NCBI GenBank assembly: GCA_001780035.1
Contig: MFEY01000005.1
Coordinates: 40,354-104,353 of the forward strand
Direction: 5' to 3'
DNA: 64,000 bases
Source: Candidatus Doudnabacteria bacterium RIFCSPHIGHO2_12_FULL_48_16
Lineage (GTDB): Bacteria > Patescibacteriota > Doudnabacteria > UBA920 > O2-02-FULL-48-8
The translations under genes and the position numbers were made by a program. The notes beneath the pieces were generated by a model that had not been told where the DNA came from, made no database searches, and was given only the letters and a program-made list of their open reading frames with translations. Below are positions 4,795 through 59,060 of this stretch, in pieces; positions within the stretch are counted from its first letter, which is position 1; every line of letters begins with the position of its first letter.

Positions 4795-4977
4795 GTGAGA
4801 GCAAAGACTCATACGGAAGCAAGGCCGATCGAAGACACGAGCACCAACAAATCGGTCGAGGAACTTCTCGCCGAAGCCGTGCCGCCGACGAAGCACAGGA
4901 TCCCGTGGATCCTCATCACCTTCATCCTGATCGCCGCGGGCATCGCGCTCGGTATTTTCAAGGGTGTGCTCTCGTAG
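4795..4977 (+). CDS. small membrane protein
   Basis: 60 aa with a C-terminal TM helix. GGAGG lies 6 nt upstream of the ATG, and a terminator hairpin follows. Confidence 0.4.
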   Translation: MRAKTHTEARPIEDTSTNKSVEELLAEAVPPTKHRIPWILITFILIAAGIALGIFKGVLS

Positions 4978-5003
4978 CCGGCCGTGCGGCCGGCGCCCTT
5001 TAG

Positions 5004-5040
5004 AGGGTCGGGTGGACACATGTGCCGCCCGACCCTGTTT
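5004..5040 (+). terminator. intrinsic terminator
   Basis: agggtcgggtgg-acacatgtg-ccgcccgaccct hairpin followed by gttttgttt. Confidence 0.5.
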
Positions 5041-5067: not shown

Positions 5068-5172
5068 ACCCCGTTAGAAGTAAAAAAATAGTAACTGCTC
5101 TCTCGGAGGTGAATAATTTTTTATATCTTAATTCGATTATATTTTAATGTCTTCAGAAACTTCTAACGGGGT
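5068..5172. repeat. inverted-repeat (MITE-like) element, copy A
   Basis: Perfect 14-bp TIRs: accccgttagaagt at 5068-5081 and acttctaacggggt at 5159-5172, around an AT-rich 77-bp core. The right TIR overlaps the 5' end of the GT2 gene. Confidence 0.7.
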
Positions 5173-10889: not shown

Positions 10890-12131
10890 ATGGAGAGGGG
10901 AGTTCTAAGCAAAAGAAACTCAAAGCAAATGGAACCGTTAGCATCAAAGATTCGACCCAAAAACCTGGAAGAATTTATCGGGCAAGCGCATTTGGTCGGC
11001 CTTGATAGGCCGTTAAGAATCGCCATCGAGAACAAGCATTTGTTTTCCTTCATTTTTTGGGGACCGCCGGGCGTGGGCAAGACGACCCTGGCCAAAATTT
11101 ATGCCAAAGCTCTGAATGCCGACCTGTTTGAATTGTCCGCAGTTTCATCTGGTAAAGATGATGTCCGGCAGATTGTGAACCCCGTTAGAAGTAAGACGCC
11201 TGGGACGTCTGCCGATATGTTTACATACCGGACTTCTAACGGGGTGAATGCCAACACGGCCAAACCGAAAGTCTTGTTTCTGGACGAAATCCATCGGTTC
11301 AACAAAGCCCAGCAGGATTACTTGCTGCCGTTTGTCGAAAAAGGAGAAATCACTCTGATCGGCGCAACTACGGAAAATCCCAGCTTCGAGATTATCCCGG
11401 CGTTGCTGTCTCGCTGCCGGGTGTTTGTCCTGCATGAATTTTCGGCCGAAGAAATGTCAAAAATCATTGACCGCACCGGAGTCAAGCTCGATAAAAAATC
11501 CAAAGAATGGCTGGTCAATATGGCCAACGGCGATGCGCGGCAGGCAATCACTATGTTGGAGAATACGGTTAATTTTTACGGCAAAGCTACAGTTGAGAAC
11601 CTGAAGAACACGCTGCAGAGCAAATTCCTGCGGTTCGATAAGAAGGGCGAAGAGCATCACAACACGATTAGCGCGTTTATCAAATCCATGCGGGCCAGCC
11701 AGCCGGATGCAGCGCTGTATTATTTGGCCCGGATGATTGAATCAGGCGAGGATCCGAAATTTATTGCCCGGCGCATGGTCGTGTTCGCATCCGAAGACAT
11801 TGGATTGGCGCAACCCACGGCTTTGGTCGTCGCCAATGATGTGTTCCGCGCCGTTGAAACTATAGGCTTGCCGGAGGCGGCGGTCAATCTGGCGCACGGC
11901 GTGGCGTATCTGGCTTTGGCCCCTAAGAATCGCGATTCTTACAATGCTTATTATGAAGCGCTCGATGACGTCAAAGAGCTGGGCAATCTGCCGATCCCGA
12001 TGATGATCCGCAATGCCCCGACCAAGCTTATGAAGGATTTGGGCTACCACCAAGGTTATGAATTGTATCCAAAGGAAGATCTTTTGCCGGAGCAGCTGAA
12101 AGGCAAAAAATATCTGAAGCGAAAAAAATGA
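10890..12131 (+). CDS. rarA: replication-associated recombination protein A (AAA+ ATPase)
   Basis: FWGPPGVGKTTLA, LFLDEIHRFNKAQQD and GATTENPSFE. It carries a 23-aa in-frame insertion, which is repeat copy B. Confidence 0.9.
   Translation: MERGVLSKRNSKQMEPLASKIRPKNLEEFIGQAHLVGLDRPLRIAIENKHLFSFIFWGPPGVGKTTLAKIYAKALNADLFELSAVSSGKDDVRQIVNPVRSKTPGTSADMFTYRTSNGVNANTAKPKVLFLDEIHRFNKAQQDYLLPFVEKGEITLIGATTENPSFEIIPALLSRCRVFVLHEFSAEEMSKIIDRTGVKLDKKSKEWLVNMANGDARQAITMLENTVNFYGKATVENLKNTLQSKFLRFDKKGEEHHNTISAFIKSMRASQPDAALYYLARMIESGEDPKFIARRMVVFASEDIGLAQPTALVVANDVFRAVETIGLPEAAVNLAHGVAYLALAPKNRDSYNAYYEALDDVKELGNLPIPMMIRNAPTKLMKDLGYHQGYELYPKEDLLPEQLKGKKYLKRKK
11179..11245. repeat. inverted-repeat (MITE-like) element, copy B, in-frame inside rarA
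   Basis: Perfect 14-bp TIRs: accccgttagaagt at 11179-11192 and acttctaacggggt at 11232-11245. The flanking dinucleotide GA is duplicated, so 67+2 = 69 bp adds 23 codons. Confidence 0.7.
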
Positions 12132-14251: not shown

Positions 14252-14347
14252 TCCCGTTTAGAAATTTTTCTAAAAAGGGGATTGATTAAGATTAACCGTT
14301 GTCGTAATTAGCGATAATTGTATGCTAATCACTTATTTCTAACGGGA
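14252..14347. repeat. inverted-repeat element, copy C
   Basis: tcccgtttagaaat at 14252-14265 pairs with atttctaacggga at 14335-14347. The element sits in the divergent intergenic region between the helicase and the GT-C gene. Confidence 0.6.
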
Positions 14348-16178: not shown

Positions 16179-16213
16179 TTGCCTAAAAAAAGCCCAAGCT
16201 ATATAATATATAC

Positions 16214-30330: not shown

Positions 30331-31080
30331 CTACTTCTCAACCACAATCATGGCCTTGGGCCGGCCTGTTTGGTCTTCGTGATACCCCGTCTTGTAATCG
30401 ACAAGGGCATTAAAGAAAATATTGTAGCTATATCTGTAGCCTTTGCCATTGCGTGTGCCAGGATCATTGGTTATGACTTGTTTCTTCGCCTCATCGTATC
30501 CTATAACCACGAGCATATGCGTCAGTGGCCCGGCACCGGTGAAATTAGGGTTATTGAGCTTCTGGCCATTGGCCGGAGTAATGACTAACTTCCCTGCCGC
30601 CAGTTCTTTTTTGATGTCTTCTATAGTGATCCCTGACTTTACAGTATGGTTATCGTAGTGATAATAATCCGTCATGAGCTTGGCCGTATCGGCTGCGCCC
30701 AGGTCCAGGTAGTTACCATAAGTTTCTTTTTCAAACTCAGACATGGCAATAATGGTTTTTTCCGCTTCAGAAGCTGAGATGGAAGTTTTCCCTTGGGTCC
30801 AGGCGTAGGCCATGATCAACGAAGCCTCTTCGCAACCATCCTGTTGGCGCGGATCAGACCAGTTGGCCGTCGGCGCTTGGGCAGTAAAAGGCACGGTCAA
30901 GAGGACATAACCCGGCAAGGCGCTCGCCTGCCCGGCCGGAGTTGACGGGCTTTGGCTAGCGGGACTCGTTTCGTTCTTGGGTTGATCCTTGGGCTGATCA
31001 TTTGGTTTGGGTTTGAATATCAAAACCGCTGCCAAAGCCAGAGCGACCATGATCAAAATTGTTAAATTGATTTTTTTCAT
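30331..31080 (-). CDS. secreted C39-like (BtrH/YvpB-type) cysteine peptidase domain protein
   Basis: Signal peptide, a Cys in QQDGCEEAS and a His in THMLVVIGYD. Confidence 0.55.
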   Translation of the reverse strand: MKKINLTILIMVALALAAVLIFKPKPNDQPKDQPKNETSPASQSPSTPAGQASALPGYVLLTVPFTAQAPTANWSDPRQQDGCEEASLIMAYAWTQGKTSISASEAEKTIIAMSEFEKETYGNYLDLGAADTAKLMTDYYHYDNHTVKSGITIEDIKKELAAGKLVITPANGQKLNNPNFTGAGPLTHMLVVIGYDEAKKQVITNDPGTRNGKGYRYSYNIFFNALVDYKTGYHEDQTGRPKAMIVVEK

Positions 31081-31176
31081 CCCGTTATGATTAGTTAAAT
31101 TTAATTAACATTTTATGGCGCTGCATTGATTATAATTTATTAGTATATTGCCCGCTATGTCAAATGTCTAACGGGA
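31080..31176. repeat. inverted-repeat element, copy D
   Basis: tcccgttatga at 31080-31090 pairs with gtctaacggga at 31166-31176. It fills the intergenic gap exactly, and the left TIR abuts the ATG of the C39 peptidase gene. Confidence 0.55.
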
Positions 31177-38243: not shown

Positions 38244-39161
38244 TTATACCTTCAAGTAGCGGCGCATGGCAATACTGGAAGCAATGGCCGAAAGGACAAT
38301 GCTGGCGGCGAGATTCACCAGCAGGATGCGCCAGAACAGAGCGCTGATCAGGCTGGAGCCCAGAACCTGAATTGAAAGGAATTGCTCAATCCGGCCGGAC
38401 AGCAGAATCAGCAGAATCAGGATAATGAGCGAAGTTAGAACCGTGGCGATCAGGGAATAAAGAATGCCCTCGATCATAAACGGCCAGCGGATATACCAGT
38501 TGGTGGCGCCGACGAGGCGCATGATCTCCACTTCCTCCCGGCGGTTGTAGATCGTGAGGCGGATGGTATTGAAAGTTACCATAACAGTTACGACCATAAA
38601 GATGGCGGCCAGGAGGATGCCGAACCTGGTAATGAACTGGATGATCCGATAAAGCTTGTTGATGACCGTCTGGTTGTCGCGGACATTTTGAAAGTAAGGC
38701 GCGTAGCGCTGGCCCTTGAGGGTGTCGTAAATTCGGGAATAATCGGTCAGATCGTAAGCCTTCACCGCAATGGAACCGGTTAAGGGGTTTTCAGCGTCGG
38801 TAAATTCATTTAAGCTCTCAATCCAGTTGGGTTCGTTTTGGTGGATCAGCTTAAACTGCGCGATCGCTTCTTCTTTGGTCGTGTAATTGACTTCCCTCAC
38901 GCCCTCTAGGCCTTTTATTTCCGTAATGACGTTCTGGACTTCCTTATCCGTGGTTTGCTGGTTGAAATACGCGGTCACCACGCCAATCTTATCTGTGGAA
39001 TTTTGGATGGCGACCGAGGTTAAAGCATAAAGGACAATTATTATGGAAATAATAAACAAGGTAATGGCGACCATGGAAGTGGCCGCGATTGAAATCCAAA
39101 TGTTCCGCAGAAAATTTGTTAAACCCGATTTAATCAAGCGTTTCGTCTCCAAGGTTGTCAT
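38244..39161 (-). CDS. ftsX: cell division ABC transporter permease FtsX
   Basis: FtsX topology and the FtsX C-terminal motif region, directly downstream of ftsE. Confidence 0.85.
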   Translation of the reverse strand: MTTLETKRLIKSGLTNFLRNIWISIAATSMVAITLFIISIIIVLYALTSVAIQNSTDKIGVVTAYFNQQTTDKEVQNVITEIKGLEGVREVNYTTKEEAIAQFKLIHQNEPNWIESLNEFTDAENPLTGSIAVKAYDLTDYSRIYDTLKGQRYAPYFQNVRDNQTVINKLYRIIQFITRFGILLAAIFMVVTVMVTFNTIRLTIYNRREEVEIMRLVGATNWYIRWPFMIEGILYSLIATVLTSLIILILLILLSGRIEQFLSIQVLGSSLISALFWRILLVNLAASIVLSAIASSIAMRRYLKV

Positions 39162-39162
39162 A

Positions 39163-39258
39163 TCCCGTTAGAAAATTGATAATAATATGATATTTTTTTC
39201 GATGCTTATATTATAAATTTAATGCTGTTAATTTAACTTTGAGCTATTTCTAACGGGA
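39163..39258. repeat. inverted-repeat element, copy E, exactly filling ftsE-ftsX gap
   Basis: tcccgttagaaaat at 39163-39176 pairs with atttctaacggga at 39246-39258. One end abuts the ftsE stop and the other abuts the ftsX ATG. Confidence 0.6.
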
Positions 39259-39936
39259 TCATAGGACGTATTTGCCTTTCTCCTGGTCGTAAATGATTTC
39301 ACCTTTTTCAATGGTGATCACGCGTTTTTTGACGCTGTTGACCAGCTCCTTGGCGTGCGTAGCCAGAATGACCGTGGTTCCCGTTTTATTGATCTTCATC
39401 AGCAGCTGTAAAATTTCCCAGGCATTAATCGAATCCAAGTTTCCCGTCGGCTCGTCAGCCAAAAGCAGCACCGGCTTGTGCACCATGGCGCGCGCAATTG
39501 CTACGCGTTGTTTTTCGCCGCCGGACATTTGGTGTGGGAAAGCATGAGCCTTTTCCTGCAAGCCGACCAGTTCCAGAACCCGCGGCACTTCTTTTTTGAT
39601 CATGGCCGCCGGTTCCCCGGAAACTTCCAGGGCAAAAGCGACGTTTTCGAGAGCAGTACGGTTGGGTAGAAGCTTGATGTCTTGGAACACCACGCCGATT
39701 TTGCGGCGCAGATATGGAATGTCCCGGGCTTTGATTTGGGCCACGTCAATGTCATCGATCAGGATCCGGCCGCTGTCCGGCTTTTCTTCCCCGATAATCA
39801 GGGAGATGAGCGTGGACTTGCCGGCGCCGGATTGCCCGATCAACGATAAAAAATCCCCTTTGTGGATGTCGATGCTGATATTTTTCAGCGCAATGATTTG
39901 GGGATATGTTTTTGTTACTTTATCGAAACGAATCAT
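39259..39936 (-). CDS. ftsE: cell division ATP-binding protein FtsE
   Basis: GQSGAGKSTL, MSGGEKQRVAIARAM and LLADEPTGNLD. Confidence 0.9.
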   Translation of the reverse strand: MIRFDKVTKTYPQIIALKNISIDIHKGDFLSLIGQSGAGKSTLISLIIGEEKPDSGRILIDDIDVAQIKARDIPYLRRKIGVVFQDIKLLPNRTALENVAFALEVSGEPAAMIKKEVPRVLELVGLQEKAHAFPHQMSGGEKQRVAIARAMVHKPVLLLADEPTGNLDSINAWEILQLLMKINKTGTTVILATHAKELVNSVKKRVITIEKGEIIYDQEKGKYVL

Positions 39937-39964
39937 ATAAATTATTATAGCAAAGATTTTACGT

Positions 39965-40750
39965 TTACCCTAGCAATTGTTTGACTAAGGCGATCATTTC
40001 ATCGCGTTCTTGTTTTAAAACCTCGGGCCGGGTCTCCAACAGGCCGTTTGATTCCCCAGCCGGTGGCATTATTTCGTAAACTCGGTCGGAAAACAGGGCC
40101 GGCGCCAGATACTGGCTGTTATTATTGTAAATTACCAGGATATCAGTGGCTTTCGTCTTTAGAATTTGATCCAATTGCCATTGATAATCAGCGACACTCC
40201 ACATTAGCGGATCTTTGTATTGACTGTGGCCAAGTTTCGTGCTGCCTGGGTGCAGAAACGGCGCGGAAATCGCGGCTTTCATTAAATTAAAAAAATTCTG
40301 CGAGCCGACCTTGTGAACCTCCAGATATTCAATCTTGTTTTCCCCAAGGTTTTTAACGATAACAAATAATTTGGTTTTGCTCGCCAGGACTTTGTCCACC
40401 GGCAAAGGCTTCTTGTTTTTGAAAACATCTATCAAGTAATCAATATCCATTAAATTCCACGGATGGGAGGCGTTAATAAATTTTCGGCCGGCCAGCTCTT
40501 CATAATAAATTGACGGGCCCTTGTCCGGATCGTCGGCCAGAAAATAGCAGGCATTGGGAAATCCTGCGGACATTGAGTAGATTTCATCGAATGCATGCGT
40601 CAGGCCCAGCTGCTGCAATCCGATCAAGGCTCCGGAGCCGCGCATTCCGCTCATCACGCCGCCGAATACGAGTAGGACGATCCGCCGGCCGTCTTTAAGC
40701 GGCACTTTTTTGTTTCTTCTGGCATTAATATGTTCAAGCGCAGGGTGCAT
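39965..40750 (-). CDS. patatin-like phospholipase
   Basis: Gly-rich loop GGVMSGMRGSG and the GxSxG nucleophile elbow YSMSAG. Confidence 0.65.
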   Translation of the reverse strand: MHPALEHINARRNKKVPLKDGRRIVLLVFGGVMSGMRGSGALIGLQQLGLTHAFDEIYSMSAGFPNACYFLADDPDKGPSIYYEELAGRKFINASHPWNLMDIDYLIDVFKNKKPLPVDKVLASKTKLFVIVKNLGENKIEYLEVHKVGSQNFFNLMKAAISAPFLHPGSTKLGHSQYKDPLMWSVADYQWQLDQILKTKATDILVIYNNNSQYLAPALFSDRVYEIMPPAGESNGLLETRPEVLKQERDEMIALVKQLLG

Positions 40751-41840
40751 TTATTTATTTTTTTCCAGATATTTTTTAATGAATTCTTCGAGGTTGCCTT
40801 CCAGAACATGTTCGGCATCCGAAGTTTCGTAACCCGTCCGATGGTCTTTGACCAATTTGTAAGGATGCAGGACATAGGATCGGATTTGATTTCCCCATTC
40901 GGCGCTGTGAAACTCGCCGCGGATTTGCAGGCGTTCCTGCTCCTTTTTTTGTTCGTCCAGCGCGGCCAGTTTGGCGGATAAAATTTTTAAGGCCTGTTCT
41001 TTGTTCTGCGACTGGCTGCGCTCATTTTGAATCGTGACGGTGATTCCGCTCGGCCGATGCACGGCGCGGATAGCTGAATAGGTCGTATTTACCGATTGAC
41101 CGCCATGGCCGCGTGAGGTTTTGGCTTCAAGTTCGATTTCGCCCATATCCAGTTTATATTCCGATTGCTCGGTCACGGGTAAAACTTCGACCAGGGCAAA
41201 CGAAGTTTCGCGGGTATGCGCCGGATTATACGCCGACAATCTGACCAGGCGATGCACGCCGGCCTCGGATTTGAAATAGCCGTAAGCATGGGGGCCGGAA
41301 ATTTCAAGCACCACGCTTTTGATGCCGGCTTCCCCACCGCGGCTTTCATCGATCATCGTCACTTTGAATTTTTTGGCTTCGGCAAAGCGGGAATACATCC
41401 GCAGCAGCATCTGCGCCCAATCTTGGGCATCCACCCCACCCGCCCCGGCGTGGATGGACAAAATCGCGTCGTGATCATCGTATTTGCCCGAAAGGAAGGT
41501 GTTGAGGCCAAACTGGCCGTATTGGGCCGTTAAAAGCTCAAATTTGACCTTTAGCTCGGCTTCCAGGGCCTTGTCGCTGTCTTTGGTCGCCAGGGCGGTT
41601 AGCTCCTCCAATTCATGCAAATCAGCTTCAAATTTAAACCAGCTTTCAATCTCACTTTTTAGGTGGGCATGCGTCTTGGATTTTTCACGCGCCGAATTTT
41701 GGTCAGACCAAAATTCGGGCTGGGCCATGGCGTCTTCGAACTCTAGCAGTTTTTGTTTCTTTTGGGGCAGGTCAAAGATGCTCCTTCAGATCTTTGGCCT
41801 GATCTTTTAGCGTTTTAATTTTTCGCAGCAGTTCGTCCAT
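40751..41840 (-). CDS. prfB: peptide chain release factor 2, with programmed +1 frameshift at 41774
   Basis: ORF0 encodes MDELLRKIKTLKDQAKDLKEHL then stops. The +1 frame continues DLPQKKQKLLEFEDAMAQPEFW and reaches the GGQ motif. The CTT TGA C shift site has AAGGAG 3 nt upstream. Confidence 0.85.
41771..41786 (-). promoter_or_regulatory. RF2 autoregulatory +1 frameshift site (internal SD + CUU UGA C)
   Basis: On the minus strand the sequence reads gAAGGAGcatCTTTGAC. Confidence 0.8.
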
Positions 41841-58370: not shown

Positions 58371-58379
58371 GTGTTTATT

Positions 58380-59060
58380 ATAACATTTTTGGTAAATAAA
58401 AAGAGGCCCCAGAATGGCCTAAAAACGACGACGGGGAAGGATGAGTTAGCTTCTTCCTTCCCCGAGACAAAGACGAGTTCTCCTCCCAATAAATTTGGTG
58501 GCTGGGTTATGGCACAGGTCCAGCCGATCGTTCGTTAAGTATGCGAGGACCGTGCGTCGCCGCCCACTCAACTTCCAATCACCCCTGCTTTTTCGGCAGA
58601 CACACCCTCAAGTAGGAAAGAAGGTTTGGGCCACAGTCGCCAGACTGTGACGGTCGTCATACCATCGCCTCAACTCCGGCCCAGGAAGATTGGCCGGCAA
58701 GACGCGGAATAGGACTCCGCGCGGCATGGTTTGCTTCTTCAGTCGATCCTATGTCTGCGGAATTACCGCGGGATGCTAACCTCCGAGTGGAGGAAGCTCA
58801 CTGGGCCTTACCGCCACCGCTGAAGGATTGTCAGATTATCGACCTGTCTAGTTCAGGCTCTGACATATTTGGCGCTATCGCACCACACGCCTCTTTTCGG
58901 CCCTCAACTCCAGGAATCGATATCCGGAAGCGAATAGGCTCTGGATCAAGAAGTAACCTTGCGCAGGTAACTATTATAATTTCTTACGGTTGTGTCGTCA
59001 AATAAAAAGGCTAGGGATTCCAGTGGAACCCCTAGCCCGAATAGAGTCTGACCGCAATGT
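58380..59060. other. GC-rich ~0.65-kb ORF-poor segment between uvrD-like gene and purH-like gene
   Basis: Visibly high GC with no convincing ORF. I could not classify it as tmRNA or RNase P by motif. Confidence 0.3.

Follow-up and report, generated by a model that had tools for sequence, protein, structure and literature searches.

We report on a 96-bp sequence that lies between the cell-division genes ftsE and ftsX of Candidatus Doudnabacteria bacterium RIFCSPHIGHO2_12_FULL_48_16, analyzed within a stretch of 64,000 nt (the window; all coordinates refer to its forward strand). That these 96 bp are the insertion of a mobile element is regarded as highly probable. It is probably a non-autonomous DNA transposon resembling MITEs (miniature transposable elements with inverted repeats), inserted in an ancestral ATGA stop/start overlap of ftsE and ftsX. 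No transposase gene is carried, and the combination of terminal inverted repeats (TIRs), target-site duplications (TSDs), small size, multiple copies and empty sites is what characterises a non-autonomous cut-and-paste transposon of this type. The family of this copy is of the MITE kind, with two unusual traits: termini that are identical across phyla, and a strong association with start codons and stop/start overlaps. At the ftsE–ftsX (ftsEX) locus, the duplicated ATGA that supplies both a stop and a start codon explains how genes of cell division stay intact after an insertion.

The ftsE–ftsX junction and its counterparts in relatives

Both genes are located on the minus strand. The features of the junction are the following:

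39259 to 39936, minus strand: ftsE, 225 aa, stop codon TGA at 39261–39259
38244 to 39161, minus strand: ftsX, 305 aa, start codon ATG at 39161–39159
39163 to 39258, no strand assigned: MITE-like element, ftsEX copy, 96 bp, AT-rich, non-coding, bounded by TIRs
39163 to 39174, plus strand: left TIR TCCCGTTAGAAA, 12 bp
39247 to 39258, plus strand: right TIR TTTCTAACGGGA, perfect complement of the left TIR
39158 to 39162, no strand assigned: TSD copy TCATA (TATGA on the coding strand), holding the ftsX start codon
39259 to 39263, no strand assigned: TSD copy TCATA (TATGA on the coding strand), holding the ftsE stop codon

FtsE passed the NCBIfam model TIGR02673 with 282.9 bits (cutoff 264.85). FtsX matches the Pfam families FtsX and FtsX_ECD; its best score against the NCBIfam FtsX models is 199.9 bits, under the curated cutoff of 225. 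The original prediction had placed a 96-bp TIR element between two intact open reading frames (ORFs), and this is correct in coordinates and description: the right TIR adjoins the ftsE stop, the left TIR and the ftsX ATG are one base (39162) apart, and both ORFs are intact despite the insertion, with start codon position and N-terminus of FtsX in agreement with its homologues. The gap between the genes (39162 to 39258) measures 97 bp. The TIRs pair perfectly over 12 bp, or 13 bp if positions 39162 and 39259 are counted, and enclose an interior of 70 nt with a G+C content of 19%, compared to 49% in the window. Overlooked so far was the 5-bp direct repeat TCATA flanking the element, so that the coding strand reads GTCC TATGA (element) TATGA CAACC.

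The element and its flanks are identical in six of six independent assemblies of the same population, and the exact FtsX protein of the window was found on at least 24 contigs (ENA, JGI and the NCBI metagenome-assembled genomes (MAGs) GCA_001780075.1 and GCA_001777855.1). With six identical independent assemblies an assembly artefact is ruled out; the ftsEX copy is real and fixed in the sampled population.

The closest homologues of FtsX belong to Candidatus Doudnabacteria, and DNA of six distinct related lineages was fetched for comparison:

L001 (GCA_040960095.1): FtsX 85% identical, 4-bp ATGA overlap of ftsE and ftsX
L003–L005: FtsX 79% identical, 4-bp ATGA overlap of ftsE and ftsX
L135: FtsX 79% identical, 4-bp ATGA overlap of ftsE and ftsX
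L136: FtsX 75% identical, 4-bp ATGA overlap of ftsE and ftsX
L137: FtsX 71% identical, 4-bp ATGA overlap of ftsE and ftsX
L002: FtsX 85% identical, 21-bp spacer between ftsE and ftsX, no overlap

Removal of the element together with one TATGA from the junction yields GTCCTATGACAACC, in which the TGA of ftsE overlaps the ATG of ftsX. The L001 junction, AAATACGTCCTATGACC, matches this predicted empty site, and the empty-site sequence CCTATGAC is present in L001 and L003. When aligned to L001, the flanks match and the window contains a 101-bp insertion composed of the 96-bp element and the 5-bp TSD. The TIR motif is absent from all 20-kb loci of the relatives. The comparison with related genomes that had been proposed as a check is herewith available: five of the six lineages have directly abutting genes with the ATGA overlap, as expected for the insertion of a repeated TIR element into ftsEX. 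Contrary to the original prediction, the element does not replace an intergenic region; with an overlap as the ancestral state there was none, and the spacer was created by the insertion. Judged from these sequences, the insertion postdates the split from the 85%-identical lineage.

It is the duplicated target, TATGA, that provides the stop and start codons, and not the sequence of the element. TATGA was duplicated by staggered cleavage of the target, one copy keeping the TGA of ftsE and the other the ATG of ftsX; with both codons retained, neither ORF is changed. A precise-excision allele of the junction would read CCTATGACA.

The 21-bp spacer of L002 (4946–4966), ATTTCTAATTTCTAATTATTA, holds TTTCTAA twice, resembling the inner TIR part TTTCTAACGGG. 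This resemblance may go back to an element that left a remnant or footprint, or may be coincidental.

Copies in the window and across bacterial phyla

The TIR 13-mer occurs nine times in the window if up to two mismatches are allowed, compared to 2.2 expected, and nine matches were reached in none of 100 shuffles. They form five inverted pairs, 63–101 bp apart, giving five element copies of 65–103 bp in 64 kb, three of them with 4-bp TSDs. Besides the ftsEX copy these are:

31080 to 31176, no strand assigned: second copy, 97 bp, TSD TTCA, left TIR decayed, in the aminotransferase/Peptidase_C39_2 gap
11180 to 11244, no strand assigned: third copy, 65 bp, TSD TGAA, in frame in rarA/mgsA (10890 to 12131)
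14252 to 14347, no strand assigned: fourth copy, 96 bp, TSD TTTA, left TIR with a 1-bp insertion
5069 to 5171, no strand assigned: fifth copy, 103 bp, CCCCGTTAGAAG subtype, lacking a recognisable TSD

The second copy repeats the situation at ftsEX. It fills the gap between the stop of a class-V aminotransferase gene and the start of a Peptidase_C39_2 gene, with the upstream TGA inside one TSD and the downstream ATG composed of the last A of the element and the TG of the other TSD; in L001 the two genes overlap by ATGA, representing an empty site. The copy in rarA adds 69 bp (65 bp plus the 4-bp TSD) and hence keeps the reading frame. Some 23 residues (NPVRSKTPGTSADMFTYRTSNGV) are thereby placed between the Walker A and B motifs, and a homologue with 73% identity lacks them at the protein level. 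The RNA of this copy folds very stably (−34 kcal/mol, z = −5). A DEAD-box helicase gene and a membrane protein gene (weakly PMT_2-like, below cutoff) diverge from the region that holds the fourth copy. The fifth is directly upstream of a family-2 glycosyltransferase gene, where its terminal G and a TG form GTG at 5171; an in-frame ATG is found within the element at 5147. Two TIR subtypes, ATCCCGTTAGAAA and ACCCCGTTAGAAG, co-vary on both arms. By common view, genomes of the candidate phyla radiation (CPR) are streamlined and contain little mobile DNA, and five copies in 64 kb contrast with this.

Two observations concern the surroundings of such copies. Genes of the rarA type were also noted near elements in four other loci (L053, L076, L084, L092), slightly above our own chance expectation. 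Between the H+-PPase gene and the fifth copy, the region at about 4795–5040 contains a GC-rich ORF that runs from a GTG at about 4795 to a stop at about 4977 (some 60 codons). It has a strong Shine–Dalgarno (SD) sequence, AGGAGG, and a GC-rich hairpin and a T-run come after it. This ORF looks compositionally foreign, and the adjoining copy is the only one in the window without a TSD.

To search beyond the window, one genome per GTDB species (596 Gb) was scanned with the pattern CCCGTTAGAAR-N50-80-YTTCTAACGGG. Paired termini occurred at at least 119 loci in other genomes, compared to about 4 expected by chance according to our own calculation. Among the matches listed, record titles assign at least 61 loci to Patescibacteria/CPR (many classes), at least 19 to Planctomycetota (including anammox, Pirellulales and Sedimentisphaerales) and at least 15 to Deltaproteobacteria/Thermodesulfobacteriota, including the closed chromosome CP113000.1. 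Nitrospirae account for at least three and Omnitrophota for at least two, with at least one each in KSB1, Ratteibacteria and Clostridia; at least four are labelled Gammaproteobacteria and at least 12 are unclassified. In IMG/VR viral contigs only three stretches were found, giving no sign of carriage by phages. A metagenome scan with an interior 22-mer returned no matches, the source locus itself being likewise unmatched, which makes this result uninformative. Bacterial MITE families are normally confined to a genus or family. Identical 12-base termini from Patescibacteria to Planctomycetota and Desulfobacterota are of unusual breadth in comparison, which points to a widely shared transposase. 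No published description of the element family was found in the literature, either by sequence or by topic.

Members of the family have the termini YCCCGTTAGAAR...YTTCTAACGGGR and lengths of 65–130 bp. The ends of the element read CCCCG or TCCCG, and the distances between TIR cores elsewhere range from 72 to 129 bp with clusters at 72–79 and 90–102 bp. No ORF is conserved among the elements. TSDs were surveyed at 130 elements, the extent of each being set as Y-CCCGTTAGAA...TTCTAACGGG-R. Of these, 82 are flanked by a direct repeat of exactly 4 bp, mostly of the form TNNA (TGAA 15, TAAA 12, TTTA 12, TTCA 9, TCCA 7, TTGA 6 and others), five by a 3-bp repeat and one by a 5-bp repeat; the controls lack such a repeat. 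The flanking hexamers agree in at least four of six positions at 94 of the 130 elements, compared to 11 of 130 for control hexamers.

In some lineages related or near-identical copies occupy different loci, as in delta-proteobacterial sets and the L026 trio. The identical copies in MAG DX4.bin27 have another explanation. There, a larger MITE (about 325 bp, ends TTAA/CCCGAAAAATGC...GCATTTTTCGGG/TTAA; L013 2057–2380 and 4832–5155; L027, L047, L011) encloses the element, which has spread with it, so that these copies are uninformative on the element's own copying. The larger MITE is a second family with CCCG termini and TTAA duplication.

Two further forms were noted. Minimal palindromes of 26–28 bp consist of two TIRs with 3–6 nt between them and have a REP-like look (L042 6015–6041; L111 2082–2108; L121 about 1369–1395; L093 6817–6843 and 7024–7050; L132 3963–3989); they may have arisen by extreme deletion or as products of excision. 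In Levyibacteriota-like MAGs a 78-bp subfamily (L037 4315–4392; L118 7194–7271; L122 1254–1331) has AAGGAG roughly 13 nt upstream of the ATG that it regenerates. Going by this motif, the element may supply the ribosome-binding site in hosts that use SD sequences.

The position relative to genes was surveyed for 132 elements with an ORF threshold of at least 80 codons. At 58 of them a gene starts at the edge of the element (control 15%), and for 49 of these 58 the start codon is formed by the terminal purine of the element and the TG of the duplication. A gene stop was located at the edge of 16 of the 132 elements (control 3%), typically the TGA of the duplication, and 11 elements exactly span the gap from an upstream stop to a downstream start (control 0.3%). 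Among the element ends forming RTG (n = 72), 65% open a long ORF, compared to 21.5% of all RTG in the same loci. If it is the right edge at which the gene begins, the original ATGAA is usually retained in the left flank, often with a TATAAT-like box 7–9 nt upstream, which is the layout expected of leaderless genes. Present-day copies are thus overrepresented at start codons and at RTGA gene junctions. The bias towards gene boundaries probably results from a target preference resembling gene starts (R-TNNA-Y, often RTGAAY) together with a survival filter: in compact genomes only those insertions would persist that regenerate stop and start codons via the duplication. Recurrent insertions at boundaries bear on the question of how compact genomes tolerate transposons. 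They can also mislead gene calling in MAGs by way of spurious spacers, N-terminal extensions and in-frame inserts.

Expression of ftsX and competing readings

No terminator-like site was found in 39162–39258 on either strand. The stem does not resemble an intrinsic terminator, with a loop of 70 nt and no U run after the stem, and this function was rejected for the element. In a scanned region of 1.2 kb no promoter-like site of the coding strand lies inside the element; the only coding-strand match is located outside, two matches overlapping the element are antisense, and their total count is within chance. Read-through from ftsE is therefore the simplest assumption, and the tolerance of read-through that the original prediction had proposed is consistent with these scans of the sequence. 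Its second suggestion, that the element provides translation initiation, could not be upheld: the element contains no SD-like sequence, and folding suggests that the helix hinders free initiation at ftsX.

An SD-like motif was found at only 5 of the 51 long ORFs of the window, so that its lack at ftsX is normal here. Upstream of ftsE, a TATAAT box is located 7 nt from the ATG. Many genes of the window show a TATAAT-like box ending 6–9 nt before the ATG (e.g. 39937–39955, 16199–16213, 58371–58390), and this pattern suggests widespread leaderless or very short-leader mRNAs in the Doudnabacteria genome. In prfB (about 41765–41795, minus strand) a programmed +1 frameshift site, AAGGAG-N3-CTTTGAC (CTT TGA C), was noticed. 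Its AAGGAG indicates that anti-SD interaction does occur, rare as SD motifs are at the starts of genes.

Structure around a start site limits initiation, and translation from upstream can relieve such structure. In the predicted RNA of the ftsEX copy the TIRs form a 13-bp helix (minimum free energy −19 kcal/mol, z = −3.5), at the base of which the A of UGA pairs with the U preceding AUG. Opening energies were calculated for −15 to +15 around the start AUG:

ftsX start, helix free to form: 16.3 kcal/mol
ftsX start, ribosome held on the ftsE stop: 7.6 kcal/mol
L001 junction, without element: 7.8 kcal/mol
Median of 34 gene starts of the window: 7.9 kcal/mol

The value of 16.3 kcal/mol is the second highest among the compared gene starts. 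Ten other filled junctions show the same pattern, with a median that drops from 17.3 to 10.0 kcal/mol. According to a model derived from these calculations, ftsX would be transcribed by read-through from ftsE, and the helix, with UGA and AUG at its base, would sequester the region 5' of the AUG. A ribosome finishing ftsE would melt the 5' arm and free the ftsX start, keeping translation of the two genes coupled as with the former ATGA overlap. That the TIR helix preserves translational coupling by such unmasking is a tentative proposal, to which we give slightly less than even chances. As a model this is testable: a TIR helix would take over the role of a stop/start overlap in coupling translation.

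Several findings weigh against the transposon reading or the proposals attached to it. The interiors of the five window copies are unalignable; they resemble one another no more than shuffled controls do and show no detectable similarity to 135 elements elsewhere, whereas shared interiors are expected within one MITE family; the window copies may be different old subfamilies, or their termini may be under selection. The 5-bp TSD of the ftsEX copy is rare for the family (1 of 130 elements elsewhere). Its perfect TIRs may reflect a young insertion as well as functional constraint on the helix. In the window, a Pfam scan of about 40 of the 51 long ORFs revealed no transposase, and no full-length parent carrying these TIRs was seen there; about 0.9 Mb of other loci likewise yielded neither. 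This search covered long TIR pairs with TSD, solo TIRs beside large ORFs and recurrent protein families in 119 loci; the recurrent protein clusters annotated near elements all represent housekeeping genes, and when all ORFs of the fetched loci were searched by phmmer with the ISEcp1 transposase, none matched. The coupling model is a prediction from thermodynamic folding. Selection on upstream ORFs spanning the element, with translation running from the duplicated start through the element, was tested with negative outcome: the ATG frame is open in 12 of 31 cases and the other two in 10 and 5 of 31, so the ATG frame is not more open.

Among the other explanations, exaptation is the least improbable. 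Here the TIR helix, or a protein bound to the termini, would now be a selected regulatory module and not a tolerated parasite, e.g. a coupler setting stoichiometry or a site of RNA processing or stability. The perfect TIRs around an interior unlike that of any other copy would fit, as would the three window copies of nearly equal length (96–97 bp) without sequence similarity, the strong masking of the ftsX start in the folding calculations and the fixed, invariant state in six of six assemblies. Yet the relatives manage without the element, in the operon copy at 31080–31176 the left TIR is decayed and masking amounts to only 6.1 kcal/mol, a 13-bp stem is short for RNase III, and ascertainment favours copies with intact TIRs. 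With still lower probability, a promoter in the interior drives ftsX independently, perhaps as short-leader mRNA, and uncouples it from ftsE. Outward promoters are frequent in insertion sequences (IS) and MITEs (PMC9330008), and many genes including ftsE have a TATAAT-like box 6–9 nt before the ATG and no SD sequence. However, the scan of the element gave no coding-strand site, its two overlapping antisense sites are at chance level, and the sequence from −13 to −6 of the ftsX ATG, TTCTAACG, is a poor −10 box.

Families of REP/REPIN sequences mobilised by RAYT lack a TSD, have a conserved GTAG-like 5' tetranucleotide and are associated with a Y1 RAYT gene; attC sites of integrons belong to a cassette context with an IntI gene. 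A membership of the element in this group, or its being an integron attC-like site, is very improbable and both were rejected. Paired inverted short motifs with a variable spacer, the minimal TIR-loop-TIR palindromes of some genomes, a Y1_Tnp gene in the relatives L003–L005 and the resemblance of GTTAGAA and TTCTAAC to attC core sites speak for such an origin. But TSDs are pervasive, whereas Y1 transposition and IntI recombination make none, and the roughly 40 of 51 long window ORFs that were scanned include neither a RAYT nor an integrase gene. For attC, moreover, the core order is reversed (GTTAGAA...TTCTAAC vs 5'-RYYYAAC...GTTRRRY-3') and the flanking genes are housekeeping genes. Least probable of all, with a negligible share, is a native regulatory spacer, a structured RNA gene or an assembly artefact. 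Despite the stable fold (z = −3.5) and the position between two co-directional genes, a vertically inherited native spacer was dismissed with the absence of the element from all six related lineages, and the interior is not conserved between copies. Rfam searches at gathering thresholds and up to E = 10 returned nothing relevant for a structured RNA: two tRNAs are the only matches in the window, and the best for the element (E = 8–9) are far below threshold. An artefact is contradicted by the six identical assemblies. A reading as DNA uptake sequence, given the resemblance to that of Neisseria, ATGCCGTCTGAA (9 of 12 positions), was likewise rejected: whole units of 65–103 bp with TSDs are inserted, and the motif crosses phyla.

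Comparable systems and a possible transposase lineage

For a MITE-like insertion the nearest functional precedents are MIRUs, the Rickettsia palindromic elements (RPEs) for the in-frame rarA copy, and Correia, ERIC and RUP elements for co-transcribed TIR hairpins. According to the summary in PMC3184786, MIRUs (mycobacterial interspersed repetitive units) are repeats in polycistronic operons of mycobacteria, e.g. senX3-regX3. As described there, they resemble the ftsEX copy as repeats of about 40–100 bp between operon genes, with empty and filled sites, tetranucleotide direct repeats and ends overlapping the stop and start codons of the neighbours, so that the operon keeps working. MIRUs differ in being Mycobacterium-specific and often tandem, with small ORFs and imperfect TIRs, whereas the present family has sharp TIRs of 12–13 bp, single copies, no conserved ORF and a distribution over many phyla. 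Chunjie, a MITE from Geobacter uraniireducens, is likewise AT-rich and forms a stable hairpin (PMC3184786, PMC10969869). It is, however, 178–235 bp long with 21-bp TIRs and 9-bp direct repeats, is known from one species and differs in sequence and TSD length.

RPEs are found in frame in housekeeping genes (PMC10969869), similar to the rarA copy at 11180–11244. They measure about 150 bp, are restricted to a genus and mostly intragenic, in contrast to our family, which is mostly found at gene boundaries. Correia (Neisseria), ERIC and RUP are co-transcribed bacterial MITEs whose TIR hairpins affect the fate of mRNA (PMC10969869). Correia elements differ by TIRs of 26 bp, TA duplication, IHF sites, promoters and cleavage by RNase III, compared to a stem of only 13 bp in the ftsEX copy and a family TSD of TNNA. 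Unlike the cross-phylum family described here, Correia, ERIC and RUP are all lineage-restricted.

The IS1380 family is the bacterial relative of piggyBac, and its direct repeats measure 4–5 bp. Both share CC(C) termini and short TIRs with the element family, and the ends of ISEcp1 on pC15-1a, read as CCTAGATTCTACGT, confirm the CC ends. The TIRs of piggyBac begin with CCCT or CCCA and its 4-bp duplications are TTAA with the variants TAAA, TCAA and TATG (PMC10813416), TTAA being the target (PMC10813416, PMC7351741). The T..A duplications of the element family, 4 bp long and rarely 3 or 5, recall piggyBac/IS1380, as does the structure of the larger TTAA/CCCG...CGGG/TTAA MITE that carries an element copy in one MAG. 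In contrast, TIR similarity is weak past the first bases and no such transposase was found near any copy. The relationship to IS1380/piggyBac is therefore to be taken as a lead by analogy.

A wider interpretation appears doubtful at present, namely that of a pan-bacterial MITE superfamily with YCCCGTTAGAAR termini and 4-bp TNNA duplications, adapted to gene boundaries and perhaps mobilised by a piggyBac/IS1380-like transposase. If it were true, a terminal purine plus TG regenerating ATG or GTG, duplicated TGA stops and coupling by the TIR helix would allow start codons, ATGA overlaps and even coding sequences to be colonised at little cost, the colonised hosts being those with streamlined, SD-poor or leaderless genomes.

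Two observations on neighbouring genes remain. In L003 (19196–19636), L004 (19701–20141) and L005 (17650–18090), a 146-aa Y1_Tnp gene of IS200/IS605-type or RAYT-like character was found just downstream of Peptidase_C39_2; it is absent at this position in the genome of the window and shows no link to an element. In L001, prfB is directly followed by ftsE, without the 261-aa ORF that the window contains between these two genes (39965–40750, minus strand). This ORF has no Pfam or NCBIfam match, carries a GxSxG-like SMSAG motif and may be patatin-like.

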